Program-made: the position numbers and the translations under genes | Notes under the pieces: generated by a model | What the model saw: only the letters and a program-made list of their open reading frames with translations | The model's database searches: none | Told to the model about the DNA's origin: nothing | In this document: positions 579 to 40,844 of the stretch, one piece after another | How positions within the stretch are numbered: the first letter of the stretch is position 1 | How the letters are laid out: each line of letters begins with the position of its first letter | Assembly (NCBI GenBank): GCA_003212795.1 | Contig: QCOV01000001.1 | Span: 624,893-688,892 of the forward strand | From: OCS116 cluster bacterium AG-435-F03 | Lineage (GTDB): Bacteria > Pseudomonadota > Alphaproteobacteria > MED-G09 | DNA length: 64,000 nt | Reading direction: 5' to 3'

Positions 579-3500
579 CTAGCTTAATTCATCTTCTTGT
601 AGTTCAACATTCAGACCCAAGGAACGCATTTCTTTAACAAGAACATTAAAGCTTTCAGGAACTCCAGCTTCAAAATTTTCTTCGCCACGAATTATAGATT
701 CATAAACCTTAGTTCTGCCTGCAACATCATCTGATTTTACAGTTAGCATTTCTTGTAATGTATAAGCTGCACCGTATGCTTCTAGAGCCCATACCTCCAT
801 TTCACCAAATCTTTGACCACCAAATTGCGCTTTACCGCCCAAGGGTTGTTGAGTCACAAGGCTATATGGCCCAACTGATCTTCCATGTATTTTATCATCA
901 ACAAGGTGATGTAACTTAAGCATATAGATATATCCAACCGTAACAGGTCTATCAAACTTCGTACCAGACCTTCCATCATAAAGATAAACTTGCCCAGAAT
1001 TACTTAAACCAGCTTTCTCTAATAAATCAACAATATCAGCTTCCCTTGCTCCGTCAAATACAGGGGTTGCAACAGGAACACCCTTCTTAAGTGTCTGAGC
1101 AAACTCAATAAACTCACCATCTTTTAGTTTATTAACTCCTTTATCTTCATAAATATCCTTAATGACATCTTTTACATTTTCTAAATCCATGCTTTCTTCA
1201 TATTGATTTAAAGCATCCGAAACTTTTTTTCCTAAACCGGCGCATGTCCAGCCAAGATGAGTTTCTAGAATTTGTCCAACATTCATTCTACTAGGAACAC
1301 CAAGTGGATTTAGAACAACATCAACAGGTGTTCCATCTTCAAGATATGGCATGTCTTCTACAGGTAAAATTCTTGAAATCACGCCTTTATTACCGTGCCT
1401 ACCTGCCATTTTATCGCCTGGCTGCAGTTTACGCTTAACTGCAACATAAACCTTAATGCATTTCATAACCCCAGGAAGTAAATCATCTCCTCTACTTACC
1501 TTATCAACTTTATCTTGAAATTTTTCTTCTATCAGATTTCTAGCGCTATCATATTGAAGTCTTATCTCTTCAACTTCTTTTTGATTATTATTGTTTTGTA
1601 AAACAAAATCCCATAGTGATTTATTTGAAGAAGAATCTAAAATATCTTGAGTAATTTTTATTCCTTTTTTATTTATATTTGGACCAGATAAAGCAACTTT
1701 ATTAAGTAAAAAATCTTTTAGTAAAGAATAGATATTTCTATCTAAGATATGTATTTCATCATCTCTATCAATTGATAACCTCTCAATTTCTTCTTGTTCA
1801 ACAGCTAGTGCCCTTTCGTCTTTTTCAATGCCATGTCTATTGAAAACCTTAACATCAACAACTGTTCCATTAGTTCCGGGTGCTAATCTTAAAGAGCTAT
1901 CTCTTACATCAGAGGCTTTTTCACCAAAAATTGCTCGTAATAATTTCTCTTCAGGCGTAATGGGGCTTTCTCCTTTTGGCGTTACTTTTCCAACTAAAAT
2001 ATCGCCAGGTTTAACTTCAGCACCTATATAAACAATACCTGATTCATCTAGATTTCTTAGAGCCTCCTCACCAACATTTGGAATGTCCCTTGTGATATCT
2101 TCAGAACCAAGCTTTGTATCTCTAGCCATAATTTCAAACTCTTCAATGTGTATAGATGTAAAAACATCATCCTTGACAAGTTTTTCAGAAAGCAAGATTG
2201 AATCCTCAAAATTATATCCATTCCATGGCATAAAAGCTACTAGGACATTTTTACCAAGAGCCAATTCTCCTTTGTCAGTTGAGGGACCATCTGCAATTAC
2301 CTCGCCTTTTTTAATCTTATCACCAACCCTAACAAGAGGTTTTTGATTAACGCATGTAGATTGATTTGATCTTTGAAATTTTTTCAAATTATAAATTTCA
2401 ACTCCTAAATCATCTTGCTCGAGATCGCTGTCTGATCTAATAACAATTCTTTGAGAATCTACTTGGTCAACAATACCATCCTTCGAAGCAACAAGCGCTG
2501 CTCCAGAATCACTTGCTACAAGACCTTCCATACCAGTTCCTACTAGAGGAGCCTCATTAGTTAACAAAGGTACTGCTTGTCTCATCATGTTAGAGCCCAT
2601 TAATGCCCTATTAGCATCATCGTTTTCCAAAAATGGTATCAAAGATGCAGCAACTGATACTGTTTGTTTAGGACTGACATCCATAAAATCAACTGAATCA
2701 GGTCCAACTAAATCAAAATCACCATCGTGCCTGCAATTTATTAGATCACTTATCAGCGATCCCTTTTCATCAGACGGCTCATCAGCTTGAGCAATCCTGT
2801 ACCTTCCTTCTTCAACAGCAGATAAATATACTATTTCATTAGTTTTCTTTCCATTTTCAATCTTTAGATATGGACTTTCAATAAAACCATATTTATTAAC
2901 CCTAGCATATGTAGCTAAAGAGTTAATCAGTCCAATATTTGGGCCTTCCGGAGTTTCAATTGGGCATATTCTCCCATAATGAGTTGGGTGCACATCTCTT
3001 ACTTCGAAACCAGCCCTTTCTCTTGTAAGCCCTCCTGGACCAAGAGCGGAAACCCTTCTTTTATGTGTAATTTCAGAAAGAGGATTTGTTTGATCCATAA
3101 ATTGAGATAACTGAGAGGAACCAAAGAATTCCCTTATAGATGCTGCAATAGGCTTGGCATTAATTATGTCTTGAGGCATCACTGCATCAATATCAATAGA
3201 ACTCATTCTTTCTTTAATTGCTCTTTCCATTCTAAGCAGACCTATTCTAAACTGATTTTCCATCAATTCTCCAACTGATCTTACTCTTCTGTTACCAAGA
3301 TTATCAATGTCATCGATATCACCTTTACCATCTCTTAGGTCAACAATAGTTCTTAAAACATTAGCAATATCATCTTTTGTTAGAGTTCCGTGGTCATCAG
3401 GAGTATCGAGATTTAGTCTCATATTTATTTTAACTCTCCCAACATCAGATAAATCATATCTATCACTATCAAAAAATAGACTGGTAAATAGATTTGTTGC

Positions 3501-4658
3501 ACTTTCAACAGTTGGAGGTTCTCCTGGTCTTAATATTTTATATATTTCAAAAAGGGCTGATGTTTTATCAAAAGATTTATCAACTGCTAAAGTATTTCGA
3601 ACGAAAGGACTAAAATTTACATTATCTATTAGAAGAACTGGTATTTCATCTATTTTTTCAACTTCAAATGACGCCAATAATTCCTCAGTGATCTCGTCAC
3701 CAGCTTCAGCAAAAATTTCACCAGTAGAAAAATTAACAATATCTTCAGAAATAAATTTTCCTAATATTTCTTCATTTGAGATATATAAATCTTTAACTTT
3801 ATCATTTTGATCAAGAGTTCTTTTTGTGATTTTCTTTCCTGACTCAATAATTACTTTATTATTTTTTGCATCAATTAGATCATATACAGCCTTAGAACCT
3901 TTTAAATTTTCTGAAACAAAAGGTTTTTTCCAACCATCTTTTTGTCTTTTATGAATTTCATTTTTATAAAATAAGGATAGAATTTCTTGAGAATCAAAAC
4001 CTAAACTATAAAGAACAGTTGTGGCAGGAAACTTCTTTTTTCTATCTATTCTTGCATTAAGAATATCTTTAGCATCAAATTCAAAATCAAGCCATGAGCC
4101 TCTGTATGGTATTATTCTTGCTGCATATAGAATTTTACCAGAAGAGTGTGTTTTTCCCTTATCGTGATCAAAGAATACTCCTGGACTACGATGCATTTGA
4201 GATACAACAACTCTCTCAGTGCCATTAATAATAAATGTTCCATTACTGGTCATCAGTGGAAGATCGCCCATATAAACATCTTGTTCTTTTACATCTTTTA
4301 TTGATCTGGTTTCATTCTCTTCATCAACATCATAAACTATAAGTCTAAGAGTTACCTTAAGTGGGGCAGCATATGTAAGGCTTCTTTGGATACATTCGCC
4401 TGTGTCAAATTTTGGCTCATCAAATGAATAAGATATATATTCTATTGTAGATGACTCTGAGTAGTCATGAATAGGGAATACACCTTTAAATACATTTTCT
4501 AAACCTTTATTTAACCTTTCACCATGCAAAATATTTTTTTGCAAGAATAGATCGTAAGATAATCTCTGAATGTCAATTAAATTAGGCATTTCTGCAATAT
4601 TTTCAATTCTTTGAAAAGATTTCCTTATTCTTTTTCTAGCATTAAAATTTTCTGTCAT
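579..4658 (-). CDS. rpoB: DNA-directed RNA polymerase beta subunit
   Basis: 1359-aa ORF with RpoB hallmarks ([21 protein letters not shown]). Canonical position between rplL and rpoC. Confidence 0.97.
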
Positions 4659-5101: not shown

Positions 5102-5620
5102 TTAAGCGGCCTCACCACTTTGACTTTTAGCACTTAAAACTTGAGCAATTTGCTCACCAGGTTTATTAACAATTCCAACAATTTTTGATGCAGAAGAAGT
5201 TAAAGAACCTATTATTTTAGACCTTAAAGTATCAAGACTCGGTAGTGATGCCAGTTTACTAATAGTCGCTTTGTCAATAATTTCACCGTCCATAAATCCT
5301 CCTACAACTGATAAATTTTCATTATCTTTTGTAAAATCAGAAATTATTTTTGGCTGTGAAGTCAATTCTTCAGAAAAAACTATCGCCAAAGGTCCATTAA
5401 AATATTCTGAAAGATCTTTTACTTTAGTGTCATTAACAGCAATTTTAGCTAAGCTATTTTTAACAACTTTAAAAGTGCTTCCAGCCTCCCTTAATTGATT
5501 CCTTAAGTTAGTTATTTCATGAACAGATAACCCATTATTATGTGTCAAAATGAAAAAATTAGATTCATCAAATTTTTTTGTTAAATCTGATACAACTTTC
5601 TCTTTCGCAATTCTATCCAT
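5102..5620 (-). CDS. rplJ: 50S ribosomal protein L10
   Basis: 172 aa, L10 family, in the rplK-rplA-rplJ-rplL order. Confidence 0.9.
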   Translation of the reverse strand: MDRIAKEKVVSDLTKKFDESNFFILTHNNGLSVHEITNLRNQLREAGSTFKVVKNSLAKIAVNDTKVKDLSEYFNGPLAIVFSEELTSQPKIISDFTKDNENLSVVGGFMDGEIIDKATISKLASLPSLDTLRSKIIGSLTSSASKIVGIVNKPGEQIAQVLSAKSQSGEAA

Positions 5621-5776: not shown

Positions 5777-6469
5777 CTAATTAAAAACTCCTGTATCAAT
5801 TCTTAATCCAGCTCCCATCGTAGAGCTTAAAGATACTTTTTTTATAAATACTCCTTTAGCAGCGCTAGGTTTATCCTTTTTAACTGCTCTAACAAACTCA
5901 ATGACGTTAGTATTTAAGTCCTCTTTAGAAAAACTAACTTTACCAACTCCAGCATGAATAATTCCTGCTTTATCATTTCTATACTCCACTGAACCAGCTT
6001 TTGCAGACTTTACGGCATCTGCTATATCATTTGTAACAGTGCCTATTTTTGGATTAGGCATTAGACCTTTTGGTCCAAGAACTTTTCCCAGCCTTCCGAC
6101 AAGAGGCATCATATCAGGTGTTGCGATACATCTTTCGAAGTCAATATCACCAGAAGAAACTTTTTCAACTAAATCTTCGGATCCAACTATATCTGCTCCA
6201 GAATCTTCAGCTTCTTTAGCTTTGTCTCCTTTTGCAAATACAGCTACACGAAGGTCTTTACCAATTCCATTAGGAAGATTAATAACGCCACGAACATTTT
6301 GATCAGAGAAAGTAGGATCAATATTCAAATTAACAGCAATATCAACTGTTTCGTCAAACTTAAGATTAGATGAGTCTTTAATAAGCTCTATTCCTTCATC
6401 AAGTGTATAGACTTTATCAGAGTCAATTTTTTCAGAAATTTCATTGTATCTTTTGCTTCTTGAGACCAT
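5777..6469 (-). CDS. rplA: 50S ribosomal protein L1
   Basis: 230-aa L1 family protein in the conserved operon position. Confidence 0.93.
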
Positions 6470-6471
6470 AA

Positions 6472-6897
6472 TTATTTAACCTCTAATCCCATGGATCTAG
6501 CGGAACCCTTTACAATATTTACTGCTGCATCAATATCATTGGCATTTAAATCTTTCATCTTAACTTCAGCAATTTCTTTACATTGAGCTAAAGTTACTGA
6601 ACCACAGGTTTCAGAGCCAACATTACCTGCGCCTTTATCAATTTTTGCAGCCTTCTTTAATAAATAACTTGTCGGAGCTGTCTTTATAACGAAATCAAAA
6701 GATTTATCAACATAAATAGTTATTGTTGTAGGAAGAGGAGTACCCTGTTCTTCATTTTGTGTTTTAGCATTAAATGCCTTACAAAAATCCATAATGTTTA
6801 AGCCTCTTTGACCCAAGGCTGGGCCAATAGGTGGAGATGGACTTGCTTGTCCGGCTGGAACTTGTAATTTTAAATATCCTTCGATTTTTTTAGCCAT
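6472..6897 (-). CDS. rplK: 50S ribosomal protein L11
   Basis: 141 aa with the L11 N-terminal motif [32 protein letters not shown]. Confidence 0.95.
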
Positions 6898-7765: not shown

Positions 7766-8956
7766 TTACTCAACTATTTTTGAAACTACTCCAGCACCAA
7801 CTGTTCTGCCACCTTCACGAATAGCAAATCTAAGATTATCTTGCATAGCAATTGGAACTATTAGTTCAACATCCATTTCAACATTATCACCAGGCATAAC
7901 CATTTCAGTTCCTTTATCTAACTGACAAACACCAGTAACATCTGTTGTTCTAAAATAGAATTGAGGACGATAATTAGTAAAGAAAGGCGTATGTCTTCCA
8001 CCTTCTTCTTTTGTTAAGATATATGCAGAAGCTTTAAATTTTGTATGAGGGGTTATTGAGCCAGGAGCGCATAAAACCTGCCCTCTTTCAACCTGCTCTC
8101 TGTCAATACCTCTTAAAAGAATACCAACATTATCACCTGCTTCACCTTGATCTAAAAGTTTTCTAAACATTTCAACACCAGTACAAACCGTTTTTTGAGT
8201 TTCTTTAACACCAACTATCTCGATCTCTTCATTAACATTAATTACGCCACTTTCAACTCTACCAGTAACAACTGTTCCTCTACCTGAAATTGAAAAGACA
8301 TCCTCAATCGGCATTAGGAAAGGTTGGTCTTTAGGTCTTTCTGGTTGAGGGACATAACTATCTATTTGTGACATTAGTTCAAGAATAGCATTTTTTCCTG
8401 TTTCATCATTCGTTCCCTCAAGGGCTGCAAGAGCCGAACCCTTAACTATTGGAATGTCATCGCCAGGAAATTCATATTCATTTAAAAGCTCTCTTACTTC
8501 CATTTCAACTAAATCAAGTAATTCTGCGTCATCAACTTGATCAACTTTATTCATAAATACTGCCAAAGCAGGAACACCAACTTGTCTAGCAAGTAGAATA
8601 TGTTCCCGAGTTTGGGGCATAGGGCCATCAGCAGCAGAGACAACTAATATACCGCCGTCCATCTGAGCAGCGCCAGTGATCATATTTTTCACATAGTCTG
8701 CATGGCCTGGACAATCGACATGGGCATAATGTCTGTTTTCTGTTTCATACTCAACATGGGATGTTGCAATTGTAATACCGCGCTCCCTTTCTTCCGGCGC
8801 ATTATCGATCTGGTCAAATGCTGAAAACTCTGCCTTTCCTTCATCCGCCAGTACTTTGGTGATAGCAGCAGTTAGTGTTGTTTTACCATGATCAACATGA
8901 CCAATTGTACCAATGTTACAGTGAGGTTTGGTACGTTCAAATTTTTCTTTAGACAT
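7766..8956 (-). CDS. tuf: elongation factor Tu
   Basis: Real start [28 protein letters not shown] at 8956, with GGAG 12 nt upstream; the track ORF adds 5 codons. Contains the alphaproteobacterial-type NKVDQVDD motif. Confidence 0.97.
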
Positions 8957-36649: not shown

Positions 36650-37864
36650 ATGATGTTAGAAGGATTAAGAGTTATTGAGATGTCAACATATGTAGCCGCT
36701 CCTGGAGCAGGTGGTATGCTTCGAGATTGGGGAGCAGAAGTTATTAAAGTTGAACCATTAACAGGCTGTCCAATGAGATCATTTTTTGAAGGAACAAAAT
36801 CAAAATTAGAAATAGTAGGTAACCCTATCTTTAGTCTCGATAATAGAGGCAAAAAAGGGATGACAATAAATACTAGCAATGAAAAAGGTGCTGATATTGT
36901 TAGACAATTAATTAAAGATGCAGATATCTTTTTGACAAATGTTAGACCTACATCATTAGAAAAATCAAAACTTGATCATGAAACGCTTCTAGAAATTAAT
37001 CCTAAGCTAATATATTGCTCTTTATCAGGTTACGGTCTTGACGGGGAAGAAAGAGATCGACCTGGTTTTGATATTGCTGCATTTTGGTCAAGATCCGGAA
37101 TGGCACATTTAACCCAGAGAAAAGGTGAAGAGCCCTTGCCTATTAGAGTTGCTGTTGGAGATCATATAACCTCAATATCAACAGTTAGTGGAATATTAGC
37201 TGCAGTTTATGAAAGACAAAAAACAGGTAAAGGTAAAGTTGTTGAGAGTTCACTCTTAAGAACAGGAATTTATTCCATAGGCTCAGATATGGCACTTCAA
37301 TTAAGGTTTGGTCGGGTTCCATCAACAAAAAAAAGAGATGAACAAATAAACCCAATAGCTAATTTTTTTAAAACAAAAGATGATAGATGGATATGCCTTA
37401 GTCCAAGAGCAGGAGGCGATTGGGATTTGCCTCAAGTAGCAAGAGCTATCGGGAGAGAAGAATGGTTGGAAGATGAGAGATTTAATAATCATCATGGAAG
37501 AAGGTCTAACTCTACAGAATTTGTAAAAGCTATGGATGAAGCTTTTAGTCAATTAACTCTTGAAGAATGGGGTGAAAGATTAGACAAAGAAGATCTAATT
37601 TGGGCGCCTGTACAAAATTTAAGCGAAGTTGCAAATGACAAACAAGCTATTGAAGCAGGATCATTTGTTGAAATTGAAGACCCAGAATGTGAAGAGAAGT
37701 ACCTATCTTTAGCTTCTCCGGTTAAATTCCATAATAGTGATGTAGGTCCAAAAGGACCTGCACCTCTTCTTGGTGAACATAATAAAGAAATATTAAGTGA
37801 GATGGGCTATTCATCAGAAGAAATTAGTAAATTTGAAGAAAATGGAATTATTGGGAAAAGTTAA
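36650..37864 (+). CDS. CoA-transferase family III (CaiB/BaiF/Frc-like)
   Basis: 404 aa with the family N-terminus [34 protein letters not shown] and catalytic Asp region. Confidence 0.88.
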
Positions 37865-39777
37865 TCCTTATTATCTGGAGCAGCAGTTTCTTTAAGAATC
37901 ATATTTAAACTATCTTGAATATTTAGTGTTTCTTGCTTATTTGAGCCAAGTTTTCTAATTGCGACGGTTTTATCATCCATCTCATTAACTCCAACAACAA
38001 AAATATATGGCACTTTATTAACCGAATGTTCGCGCACCTTATAATTGATTTTTTCATTTCGAGAATCCAAAATAACTCTTATTCCTTTACTAATAAATTT
38101 TTCTTCTATCTCCTGAGCATATTTATCTGCTTTAGAAGTAATAGTAGCAATAACCAATTGTATCGGAGCTAGCCAAAGAGGAAATTTGCCTTCATAATGT
38201 TCAATTAAAATTCCTGTAAATCTTTCTAAACTTCCTAAAATAGCTCGATGTAACATAACTGGGGTATGTTTTTCATTATCTTCTCCAACATAACTTGCTC
38301 CCAATCTTCCTGGCATATTGAAATCAACCTGCAATGTTCCGCATTGCCATTTTCTACCAATAGCATCATGAAGATAAAAATCTAATTTCGGTCCATAAAA
38401 AGCACCATCTCCACTATTTGTATCAAAAGGTATGCCAGTTGCTTTAGATGCATTCAAAAGTGCATTTTCAGCTTTATCCCAGATTTCATCATCGCCTACC
38501 CTTTGATCTGGTCTATCAGCATACATTATCGTAACCTTATCAAAACCCAATTCACTGTATACATCTTGAAGCAATTTACAAAAATTTATAGTTTCACTTT
38601 CTATTTGATCTTCAGTACAAAAAATATGAGCATCATCTTGAACAAAATTCCTAACTCTCATTAAACCATGAAGAGCTCCAGAGGGTTCATTACGATGACA
38701 GGAGCCAAATTCAGCCATTCTCAATGGAAGATCTTTATAGCTCTTTATACCTTGATTATATATTTGAACATGTCCTGGGCAGTTCATAGGTTTAATCATC
38801 AATTCTCTATCATCAATAATTGTTTTATACATATTGTCTTTATATTTATCCCAATGACCTGACTCAACCCATAAATCTTTATCTAAAATTTGTGGAGTTT
38901 TAATTTCTTTATATCCTTCTTTTGAAATTTTTCTTCGAATATAATCTTCTAACTCTTTATAAATCGACCAACCGTTTGCATGCCAAAAAACCATACCAGG
39001 CGCAATGTCTTGAAAGTGAAAAAGATCCAATTCTTTTCCAAGCTTTCTATGATCTCTTTTCTCTGCTTCCTCAAGAAGAACAAGATGTTTTTTTAGCTCT
39101 TTTTCAGATGACCATGCAGTTCCATATACTCTTTGAAGCATTTTATTATCAGAACTGCCTCTCCAATATGCTCCAGCAATTTTCGTTAATTTAAAAGCTT
39201 TTAAGTGCCTAACTGATGTAACATGAGGACCTCTGCACATATCGATGTACTCATTATGATGATAAAGAGCTATAATTTCATCATCAGGAATTTCATTAAT
39301 TATTTCAATCTTATAGGGTTCATTTCTATTTTTAAATGTATCAAGTGCTTTTTTTCTTGTTACAACTTCTCTAACAACATCATAATTTGTTTTAGCTAAC
39401 TCTTTCATTCTTAATTCAATTTTTTCCAAATCATTTTCACTAAGTGATTCTTCAAGATCAATATCGTAATAGAAGCCATTTTCTATTGTTGGCCCTATAG
39501 CCATTTTTGCCTCAGGATATAATTGCTTCAAAGCATGACCAAATAAATGAGCACATGAATGTCTAATTATTTCTATTCCATCTTCATCGCTATTGGTGAT
39601 TAAAACTGCTTCAGAATCTGATTCAATAAGCTCAGAAGCATCTACAAGCTTACCATTAAGTACACCAGCAACGGTTGCTTTAGCTAAACCAGAACCAATT
39701 GAAGATGCAAGATCATCAAAATTAATTGGCTTATCAAAGTTTTTTACTGATCCATCTGGTAATTTTATATTTGGCAT
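37861..39777 (-). CDS. thrS: threonine-tRNA ligase
   Basis: 638 aa with TGS and second-additional domains, class II core and anticodon-binding domain. Confidence 0.95.
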
Positions 39778-39779
39778 AA

Positions 39780-40019
39780 CTAGTTATTTATCTTTTTTTT
39801 AACAGGAACTGGATCATATCCATACCCACCCCAAGGATTACATTTTATAATACGAATGAAGGATAATTTAAAACCATAAAAAAATCCATGTTTTGAAAAG
39901 GCTTCCATTGCATAAGAAGAGCATGAGGGCTCAAACCTACATGACTTACCTAAAAAAGGTGATATCAAATATTTATACCCCTTAATTAATGTTATACATA
40001 TTTTACTTGCTATACTCAT
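39780..40019 (-). CDS. yidD: membrane protein insertion efficiency factor YidD
   Basis: 79 aa: [27 protein letters not shown]...[13 protein letters not shown] (DUF37/YidD signature). Confidence 0.9.
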
Positions 40020-40067
40020 AACTATAAAAATAATAAGTTATCTATATGCTATAAATTATTTCATTTT

Positions 40068-40097
40068 TTTATCCACAGAAAAATGGAGTTATCCACA
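40068..40097 (+). promoter_or_regulatory. two perfect DnaA boxes (TTATCCACA), direct repeats 21 bp apart
   Basis: TTATCCACA at 40068-40076 and 40089-40097, in the divergent region between the yidD-thrS operon and the candidate sRNA promoter. Confidence 0.6.
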
Positions 40098-40116: not shown

Positions 40117-40144
40117 TTGACCTGCATAAGTATCTATGTAAAAT
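40117..40144 (+). promoter_or_regulatory. sigma70-like promoter (-35 TTGACC, 16-nt spacer, -10 TAAAAT)
   Basis: Read directly at 40117-40122 and 40139-40144. It points into the GC-rich structured region. Confidence 0.5.
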
Positions 40145-40150
40145 AAATCT

Positions 40151-40373
40151 TGACGGTCGTAATGACCAATGGCCGTTGGGCGGGTGACATGCCGCTGTGA
40201 GGGTCGGATGGTCTCCGATCCATGGTGAAAGTAGAGGTAGCAATATCTCGAGGATAGCCAGCCAGAAGCCGGAAAGCTGGTCTGTAAAAGGAAGGAGCGC
40301 TGGGTTAGGGTAGCGAGATGTCAGTCTTAATCGGGGGCGATTAAGTCACACTAAAAGGGAGCTCGATGTGGGT
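40151..40373 (+). ncRNA. candidate structured small RNA of unknown family (about 220 nt)
   Basis: GC-rich island (about 50% GC against about 30% background) with perfect hairpins gggtcgga-tggtc-tccgatcc (40170-40190) and cttaatcg-gggg-cgattaag (40315-40334). It has its own promoter and ends in an intrinsic terminator. No convincing protein ORF. Confidence 0.5.
40345..40373 (+). terminator. rho-independent terminator (agggagc-tcgatgt-ggttccct followed by T7)
   Basis: G+C stem followed by TTTTTTT on the + strand; the reverse strand has only a 4-T tail. Bidirectional use is possible at this convergent junction. Confidence 0.6.
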
Positions 40374-40382
40374 TCCCTTTTT

Positions 40383-40844
40383 TTATTTCAATTCATTTAT
40401 ACAATTTTCAACAGCATCGAAAACCAATAGAACAGAGGCATGTCTTCCTTTAAAATCCTTAACTGGTTCAAAATATTTCAAATCATCCCATTTTCCTGAT
40501 GGAGGGGCGCCATCTTCCTTTAGCATATTGTACATTTCTTTTTTTATTTCTAAGAGCTCTTTTGAGTCTGATCCTATTATATTTCTTGCCATAACTGAGG
40601 ATGCTGCTTTACCAAGAGAACAAGCTTTAATTTCATGGGTGAAATCATTTACAATATTATCTTCCATATTTAAATAAACCGTAATTTTAGAACCACATAA
40701 TTTACTAACTACCGTAGAAGAGGAATCTGGTTTATCAAGCTTTCCTAATCTAGGAATATCTGATGATAACCTTAAAATATTTGTATTATATAAATCCTTA
40801 ATCACTTTTTTTCTTCCATGTAGTAATATTGTTCTTATCTTCAA
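40383..40844 (-). CDS. NifU/IscU-like Fe-S scaffold-domain protein (divergent)
   Basis: 153 aa, colinear by eye with the IscU/NifU N-domain (YNTNILRLSSDIPRLGKL...CGSKI...ACSLGKAASS...EPVK...RHAS). The ATG at 40844 overlaps cysS by 46 nt; the in-frame GTG at 40808 (8-nt overlap gtgattaa) is an alternative start. Confidence 0.6.
   Translation of the reverse strand: MKIRTILLHGRKKVIKDLYNTNILRLSSDIPRLGKLDKPDSSSTVVSKLCGSKITVYLNMEDNIVNDFTHEIKACSLGKAASSVMARNIIGSDSKELLEIKKEMYNMLKEDGAPPSGKWDDLKYFEPVKDFKGRHASVLLVFDAVENCINELK

Follow-up and report, generated by a model that had tools for sequence, protein, structure and literature searches.

The locus described here raises the question of what two perfect DnaA boxes are doing in a short intergenic region, flanked on one side by the yidD-thrS genes and on the other by the promoter of a small RNA (sRNA) gene. 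It lies in a 64 kb stretch of DNA from OCS116 cluster bacterium AG-435-F03 (genome G+C 32%), hereafter the window, to which all coordinates refer unless a relative is named. Our analysis suggests that the two boxes are, with reasonable probability, high-affinity DnaA sites that form the upstream control region of the sRNA gene. They belong to a module of ~320 bp that also contains a sigma-70-type promoter, a 232-nt RNA, and its terminator (Table 1). Read in this way, the locus would be a DnaA-controlled promoter with an unusual target, and the RNA is probably tied to DnaA. From the sequence we infer DnaA as the binding protein, the sign of regulation, the transcription starts, and any effect on yidD-thrS.

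Two perfect DnaA boxes in direct orientation

The 9-mer TTATCCACA is the DnaA box consensus (PMC11317965). Exactly two copies are present in the 64 kb window, both on the plus strand, and none was found outside the modules in ~208 kb of syntenic relatives. An earlier, sequence-only reading of this DNA had reported two exact copies of the 9-mer and called them perfect DnaA boxes. Both copies exist and match the consensus at 9/9 positions, but the first starts at 40069 rather than 40068, and the start-to-start spacing is 20 bp rather than 21 bp, leaving a gap of 11 bp. A spacing of 21 bp with a gap of 12 bp is found in one subclade of relatives (L011, L012, L083, and L093). The repeat is longer than the 9-mer itself, reaching 17 nt (TTATCCACAGAAAAATG / TTATCCACAAGAAAATG).

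A single TTATCCACA is unremarkable, with ~0.8-0.9 copies expected per 64 kb and two or more copies present in 22 of 100 shuffles of the window. Boxes with one mismatch are not enriched either (17 observed versus 22 expected). For a direct pair of TTATCCACA at 20-21 bp, a first-order Markov estimate gives ~1e-5 occurrences per 64 kb and 3.5e-4 per 2 Mb genome. The view of the sequence-only reading that two such copies were very unlikely to occur by chance is borne out; their arrangement is non-random.

Conservation of the box pair

We compared the promoter region in 20 distinct versions from PS1-clade genomes and metagenomes, paralogous copies included; 18 of these lie next to yidD, and two do not. 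The relatives comprise 11 genome loci that cover the region, with ThrS 74-95% identical, and 14 metagenome contigs that were retrieved by the conserved RNA block alone, the boxes forming no part of the query. ThrS of the window is 93-95% identical to that of single-cell and metagenome-assembled genomes labelled PS1 clade, Rhodobiaceae, or OCS116. Its identity falls to 74% across 13 species-level representatives and then jumps to 60% or less.

Both boxes are perfect and 20 or 21 bp apart in 11/11 related genome loci, and both are perfect in all 14 metagenome contigs, so that no relative compared here shows the loss that would have counted against the pair. Across the 20 versions, all 18 columns of the boxes and all seven columns of the GAAAAAT A-tract directly after box 1 are invariant, compared with 5 of the 82 other intergenic columns (Fisher p ~1e-15). 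Between the window and L011, its most distant relative, identity reaches 87% in the segment that holds the boxes, 68% in the RNA, and 46% from box 2 to the RNA start (54-63 nt); the spacer DNA next to the boxes is ~50% identical among versions. Invariant boxes set in diverged flanks firmly favour a function, and the boxes, the best-conserved bases of the region, show purifying selection relative to the flanking non-coding DNA.

The extent of conservation is not the same at the two sites. At box 2 it ends right after the 9-mer, where an A/G-rich or T9 sequence follows, depending on the subclade. At site 1 the invariant block spans 16 nt, and the GAAAAAT that follows the box possibly provides a DNA bend or an extended contact.

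This longer block raises a doubt about the identity of the bound protein. The locus might be a 20-bp tandem repeat recognized by some other factor through a longer true site, such as TTATCCACAGAAAAAT, with the DnaA match a coincidence. A 16-nt block exceeds the length of a DnaA box, and the spacing falls outside the 2-3 bp gap preferred in vivo in E. coli (PMC11317965); both points agree with another protein. Yet two independent 9/9 matches to the best-known high-affinity DnaA site are hardly coincidental, conservation at site 2 stops exactly where the DnaA box stops, and no regulator gene travels with the module. We regard binding by a protein other than DnaA as decidedly unlikely.

A structured RNA gene downstream of the boxes

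The gene that follows the boxes encodes a folded RNA, whose start (+1) we take as G40152, where the conserved RNA sequence begins; the invariant block starts at T40151. The fold has a z-score of -4.1. A consensus structure built from 18 distinct RNA sequences contains 60 base pairs in 11 helices, with compensatory changes in 21 of the 60 pairs. The proportion of paired cells is 98.1%, versus 35-50% in slid controls, and no slid control yields more than 7 covarying pairs. The RNA gene is real and lies on the plus strand, the strand being fixed by many invariant G-U pairs. A minus-strand RNA acting as a thrS leader was considered and rejected, because these same pairs would turn into C-A mismatches.

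The invariant loop of hairpin 1, UAAUGACCAAU, includes the sequence GACCA, which is complementary to the invariant UGGUC loop of hairpin 3. A kissing-loop contact between the two hairpins is possible; both loops are invariant, hence there is no covariation for it. The loop of the 3' hairpin is GGGG. Only 1-2 nt separate the terminator hairpin from the stop codon of the convergent nifU-like gene (40381-40383), and the hairpin probably terminates transcription on both strands. The RNA also contains a 12-codon open reading frame (ORF; 40162-40200, plus strand; MTNGRWAGDMPL; MTNxRWAG[D/E]xPx) that is intact in 18/18 distinct RNA sequences. We rejected it as a coding sequence: it has no Shine-Dalgarno sequence, and synonymous drift is absent from those of its codons that are invariant. 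It is probably a by-product of the constraint on the RNA.

Rfam 15 gave no match at the gathering threshold over the whole window, and only noise at E values up to 10 (551 bp) or up to 5 (three divergent loci including the paralog). ARAGORN identified no transfer-messenger RNA, and blastn of the module against plasmid and phage records found no match. A covariance model of the RNA (R1) detected it in PS1-clade loci only, with one copy in the window, and returned nothing in Pelagibacteraceae, OCS116, gammaproteobacterial, or closer outgroup loci (in L224 and L225 even with filters off). The conserved 5' block of the RNA had no match in a scan of viral contigs. By these searches, the RNA family may be new.

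Geometry of the boxes and the RNA promoter

The box pair has a defined position relative to both neighbouring transcription units. On the yidD side, the distance is 50 bp from the ATG (40019, minus strand) upstream to the start of box 1; on the RNA side, it is 19 bp from the end of box 2 to TTGACC, the -35 hexamer of that promoter. The distances given by the sequence-only reading hold, as does its description of a helically phased pair between the yidD-thrS operon and the promoter of what was then a candidate sRNA and is a real RNA gene. The -35 region is kept as ATTGAC in the yidD-adjacent copies, and the paralogous module described below has TTGATT or TTGCTT at the same +48 position. Sixteen sequences, the paralog among them, have 48 bp from box 1 to the start of the -35 hexamer (47 bp in L086). 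The four sequences of the L011/L012/L083/L093 subclade have 58 bp, with one additional base between the boxes and a T9 run that adds nine after box 2. The distance from the -35 start to the conserved 5' end of the RNA is 35 bp in all sequences. A shift by one helical turn is what a face-of-helix-dependent contact between a bound protein and RNA polymerase would predict.

This geometry suggests a mechanism. DnaA molecules at the two boxes, with centres at ~-59 and -79 relative to the RNA start, would share one face of the helix and would modulate RNA polymerase at the sRNA promoter. Class I activators typically occupy upstream positions of about -59 and -79. Because the boxes are centred at such positions, activation would be the likelier direction of control, compared with repression. 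The level of the RNA would then follow the availability of DnaA, and hence the replication or cell-cycle status of the cell.

Table 1 Features of the intergenic region and its neighbours (window coordinates)
Feature	Position	Strand	Description
thrS	37861-39777	-	ThrS homology; divergent from the RNA gene
yidD	39780-40019	-	Pfam YidD, E = 3.5e-27; divergent from the RNA gene
CTATAAAT invariant 8-mer	40049-40056	+ or -	in copies beside yidD, always starts 20 bp ahead of the start of box 1
DnaA box 1	40069-40077	+	TTATCCACA, 9/9 consensus; centre ~-79 from the inferred RNA start; invariant in 20 promoter sequences
GAAAAAT A-tract	40078-40084	+	directly after box 1; 7/7 columns invariant in 20 sequences including the paralog
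DnaA box 2	40089-40097	+	TTATCCACA, 9/9 consensus; centre ~-59 from the inferred RNA start; invariant in 20 sequences
Sigma-70-type promoter	40117-40144	+	TTGACC 40117-40122, 16-nt spacer, TAAAAT 40139-40144; 10/12 consensus
Structured small RNA	40152-40387	+	model match 40152-40383 (232 nt) plus U-tail to 40387; G+C 53%
Intrinsic terminator of the RNA	40353-40381	+	13-pair stem, then T-run; hairpin nearly invariant in the clade
nifU-like Fe-S scaffold gene	40383-40844	-	Pfam NifU_N; convergent with the RNA; cysS next

Insertion and duplication of the module

The ancestry of the module helps to decide which of the neighbouring genes the boxes serve. In outgroups from four lineages (L044, L046, L218-L220, and L225), nifU, yidD, and thrS all lie on the same strand (L044 3192-5923; L218-L220 4001-6812), with a nifU-yidD gap of 12 nt in L044 and L218-L220. 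Identity to the window is 56-59% for NifU (L218, L225) and 53-54% for ThrS (L044, L046). Neither the boxes nor the RNA were found in these outgroup nifU-yidD-thrS loci, and we therefore conclude that the boxes arrived together with the RNA module. On this outgroup evidence, an older operon of nifU, yidD, and thrS received the module as an antisense insert in the ancestor of the PS1-clade lineage. The insertion split the operon and leaves yidD-thrS in need of a new promoter.

L004 carries a second, diverged copy of the module immediately behind the stop codon of thrS; this copy lacks both a neighbouring yidD and the 8-mer CTATAAAT that precedes box 1 in the window. The modules lie at 5922-6235 (plus strand) and 3395-3709 (minus strand) in L004 and at 1802-2116 in L006, which holds the same second copy after thrS. 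Copy 2 of L004 is identical to copy 1 at 27 of 29 positions in the segment of the boxes, with both 9-mers and the A-tract perfect, and its boxes stand at the same distance from the promoter as in the yidD-adjacent copy. Identity drops to 51% in the next 54 nt, the promoter spacer, and is 79% in the RNA, which shows compensatory changes. The block formed by RNA1, the boxes, yidD, and thrS is inverted relative to the window in both L004 and L091. Because they share the second copy (L006) or the block inversion (L091), L004, L006, and L091 are assigned to one sublineage. The two RNA copies of L004 are inverted repeats on either side of yidD-thrS, an essential pair, which makes this segment potentially invertible.

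The sequence-only reading had connected the boxes with a relocation of yidD from its usual place near dnaA and oriC. This connection is not supported: outgroups have nifU-yidD-thrS without boxes, and the paralog keeps its boxes without yidD. Since yidD-thrS already stands behind nifU in outgroups that have no boxes, the yidD-thrS pairing is older than the boxes. The idea of the boxes as a relic travelling with yidD was rejected on the same outgroup arrangement.

The yidD side of the intergenic region

The genes yidD and thrS are 2 nt apart, which suggests that they form one operon. The region before yidD contains no canonical minus-strand promoter, and the one other conserved element is CTATAAAT, invariant in 18/18 yidD-adjacent sequences and absent from both copies that lack yidD. 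We assign this 8-mer, with probability, to the yidD-thrS promoter, because thrS is essential and has no same-strand gene upstream in the L004 arrangement. Read on the minus strand, it becomes ATTTATAG, a poor -10 in which no hexamer has both key bases. On the plus strand it reads TGCTATAAA, a good extended -10, and it reads so in most relatives. CTATAAAT is thus a candidate for the -10 region of the yidD-thrS promoter (ATTTATAG) or, alternatively, for a plus-strand extended -10 (TGCTATAAA). If the -10 of yidD lies within ATTTATAG, box 1 would span ~-34 to -26 of the yidD-thrS promoter.

Such an overlap would allow a different assignment of the boxes, in which they mainly control yidD-thrS. DnaA at box 1 would then sit on the -35 and spacer of a weak promoter with ATTTATAG as its -10, either repressing it or replacing recognition of the -35, and the RNA promoter would merely be adjacent. 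The distance of 20 bp between CTATAAAT and box 1 is held even where that between box 1 and the RNA promoter has shifted by 10 bp, the lack of a canonical promoter fits dependence on an activator, and in the L004-type arrangement, without a same-strand gene upstream of yidD, thrS must be driven from this short region. The minus-strand reading of CTATAAAT as a -10 is nonetheless poor, the outgroups run nifU-yidD-thrS without any boxes, and the paralog, which has neither yidD nor CTATAAAT, keeps both boxes and the A-tract perfect amid flanks that are ~50% identical. As the main role of the boxes, control of yidD-thrS therefore seems rather unlikely to us. The paralog without yidD, the geometry of the promoter, and the outgroup state are our reasons for assigning the boxes to the RNA and not to yidD. 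Control of yidD-thrS can be compatible with control of the sRNA, as a second output of the same sites: the same bound DnaA would lie over the -35 and spacer of the probable divergent yidD-thrS promoter, and it may also set the expression of that operon.

The wider neighbourhood and the origin question

Perfect boxes in AT-rich intergenic DNA beside a non-coding RNA (ncRNA) gene superficially resemble the Caulobacter replication origin Cori with its ccnA gene (PMC8959179), and the locus could in principle be a chromosomal replication origin or the remnant of one. The sequence-only reading had considered two boxes too few to call an origin, and box number, GC skew, gene content, and duplication all bear this out. 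The two boxes form no cluster: there is no other exact copy in 64 kb, and one-mismatch boxes are not enriched. Promoters take up the ~130 bp spacer, past box 2 the DNA is only 46-51% identical in relatives, with the -35 its sole conserved part, and the boxes have neither a conserved, AT-rich unwinding element nor conserved DnaA-trios beside them. GC skew, which the sequence-only reading had proposed as a check, is negative on both sides of the locus within the window (-0.23 at 38-40 kb, -0.11 at 40-42 kb, and -0.26 at 44-46 kb), with no change of sign and no turn. Minus-strand genes lie on both sides, without a switch in gene strand. No dnaA, dnaN, hemE, parAB, or gidAB was found among 51 ORFs scanned with Pfam across 9.4-63.6 kb, a scan that left aside thrS (known by homology), six ORFs of at least 120 amino acids at 0.6-9 kb, and three smaller ones elsewhere. 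Finally, the module is not single-copy, being duplicated and inverted in some genomes, and it is absent from the outgroups. We reject the origin reading on these grounds and consider it extremely improbable even as a remnant.

Gene packing around the locus is very tight, and the ORFs of a CoA-transferase and of thrS converge with a 4 bp overlap of their 3' ends (37861-37864). A long block of catabolic and oxidative genes, unusually dense for a small AT-rich genome, occupies positions 10162-34940 of the window. It holds three cytochrome P450s, a Rieske oxygenase, several short-chain dehydrogenases, a flavin monooxygenase, a molybdopterin oxidoreductase, and a TonB-dependent receptor. Beyond its own clade, ThrS (37861-39777) is nearer to gammaproteobacterial ThrS (Pseudoalteromonas, 59-60%) than to that of Pelagibacteraceae or OCS116 (52-54%), which could reflect an old transfer or a composition effect.

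Comparison with known DnaA sites

A role of DnaA as a transcription factor is established both for E. coli and for alphaproteobacteria (PMC11317965, PMC6393856). The pair described here shares several traits with the regulated promoters of E. coli. In nrdA, polA, purH, mioC, dnaA, and rpoH, as here, direct TTATCCACA boxes lie in the promoter, with two sites required or used together (PMC11317965). The base after the strong box of such promoters is often G, as it is at box 1 (PMC11317965, Table 1). The differences concern spacing and target. E. coli double boxes are 2-3 bp apart, with a period of 11-12 bp, and usually only one of the two is perfect (PMC11317965), whereas here both boxes are perfect, 11-12 bp apart with a period of 20-21 bp, and separated by an invariant A-tract. 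The E. coli targets are protein genes, and the target here is a structured non-coding RNA.

Alphaproteobacterial DnaA, in a setting like that of our locus, controls promoters besides its role in replication in Caulobacter (PMC6393856). A scan of the Caulobacter genome predicted DnaA motifs at -100 to +50 of some ncRNA starts (PMC5988900). Those motifs are single, degenerate, and without comparative support, in contrast to the two perfect, clade-invariant boxes of fixed geometry described here, and we found no relation of our RNA to the Caulobacter ncRNAs (no Rfam match). A further parallel is CcnA, likewise the product of an alphaproteobacterial ncRNA gene associated with DnaA boxes, which feeds into cell-cycle control (PMC8959179). 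The ccnA gene lies inside Cori, contains weak DnaA boxes, is driven by a CtrA box, and yields a 182-nt RNA (PMC8959179). The RNA described here differs in its non-origin location, in having strong boxes upstream of its promoter, in the lack of a conserved CtrA site, and in being longer (232 nt) and more structured.

A further group of E. coli loci, datA, DARS1, and DARS2, resembles our pair in that short box clusters in non-origin intergenic DNA are conserved for the handling of DnaA. The pair might accordingly be a DnaA-management site, either datA-like (titration or inactivation) or DARS-like (reactivation), with no part in promoter regulation. Two perfect and hence high-affinity boxes, invariant in the clade and duplicated in one sublineage, would suit this role, and datA and DARS too are short intergenic clusters beside unrelated genes (PMC11317965). 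The architecture does not match: the locus offers two direct boxes and, save for the A-tract, no other conserved element. The E. coli datA and DARS loci have at least three boxes in defined orientations, with DARS boxes I and II inverted, together with IHF or Fis sites. They thus differ from the pair in box number, orientation, and accessory sites, and they have no particular promoter geometry. Nor would titration explain why the pair stays at a fixed or whole-turn distance from a -35 hexamer and travels with an RNA gene, and we judge a DnaA-management role unlikely.

Viral contigs, among them phage and plasmid-like ones, provide a broader sample of box pairs. In at least 123 viral-contig loci (L095-L217), perfect direct pairs have spacings of 11-12 bp (at least 65 pairs), 20-22 bp (at least 41), 32-34 bp (at least 19), and 43-45 bp (at least 9), so that the spacings among the matches listed follow a period of about 10.5-11 bp. 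The peak at 20-22 bp marks the two-turn spacing as a recurrent DnaA-box arrangement. Like the pair in the window, these are phased direct copies of TTATCCACA, but they occur in unrelated genomes and contexts. Three unrelated viral contigs carry TTATCCACAGAAAAAT-N4-TTATCCACA: L095 at 5541-5569 (minus strand), L096 at 6801-6829, and L097 at 8818-8846. In L096 and L097, a third, near-perfect box lies 11 bp upstream. The phage contig L095 contains the 30-mer TTATCCACAGAAAAATGAAGTTATCCACAA, identical to the paralogous module of L004 and L006. In that contig the pair overlaps the 3' end of a sigma-like ORF, with HNH and terminase genes downstream, and the structured RNA was not found.

Discussion

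The box pair combines the properties of a regulatory DnaA-box site: it matches the consensus, it is under purifying selection, and it stands at a defined distance from a promoter, with the transcription starts taken from sequence. Several observations weigh against DnaA control of the sRNA. In E. coli, chromatin immunoprecipitation sequencing locates DnaA in vivo almost exclusively at double boxes whose gap is 2-3 bp, and of 32 perfect single boxes 19 are left unbound (PMC11317965). The 11 bp gap does not fit this rule, so the pair is not a double box of the E. coli type, that is, two direct boxes with a 2-3 bp gap. Nor does either box have a partner 2-3 bp away in the window, where no 9-mer at that distance exceeds 4/9 matches. 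The RNA promoter is near consensus, so that the need for an activator is not obvious. The GAAAAAT tract is not accounted for by known DnaA contacts and could belong to a second factor. The 20 promoter sequences, moreover, come from one clade and amount to roughly three independent events, namely the retention of the boxes throughout the clade while their background diverged, the paralog, and the indel of one helical turn.

A more far-reaching idea, which we put forward tentatively and with only a modest chance of being right, is that the module is a self-contained, DnaA-gated RNA cassette. Its clade-specific folded RNA would feed back on the cell cycle or replication, as a functional analogue of CcnA made of different parts, and the cassette could duplicate and promote inversion of yidD-thrS. 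If this were true, a structured ncRNA controlled directly by DnaA would for the first time have support from comparative genomics, in an abundant, genome-streamlined marine lineage.

DnaA is well documented as a transcription factor for few protein-coding genes in few model species. Here, comparative evidence alone picks out a box pair as the most constrained element of the promoter for an uncatalogued structured RNA, in abundant ocean bacteria with few regulators. The two-turn pair with its A-tract offers a clean natural substrate for the cooperation of non-adjacent DnaA molecules, unlike the 2-3 bp rule of E. coli. If DnaA does control this RNA, the locus would link replication status directly to RNA-based regulation in a streamlined genome, and it would give the first functional clue to an otherwise unexplained RNA family.

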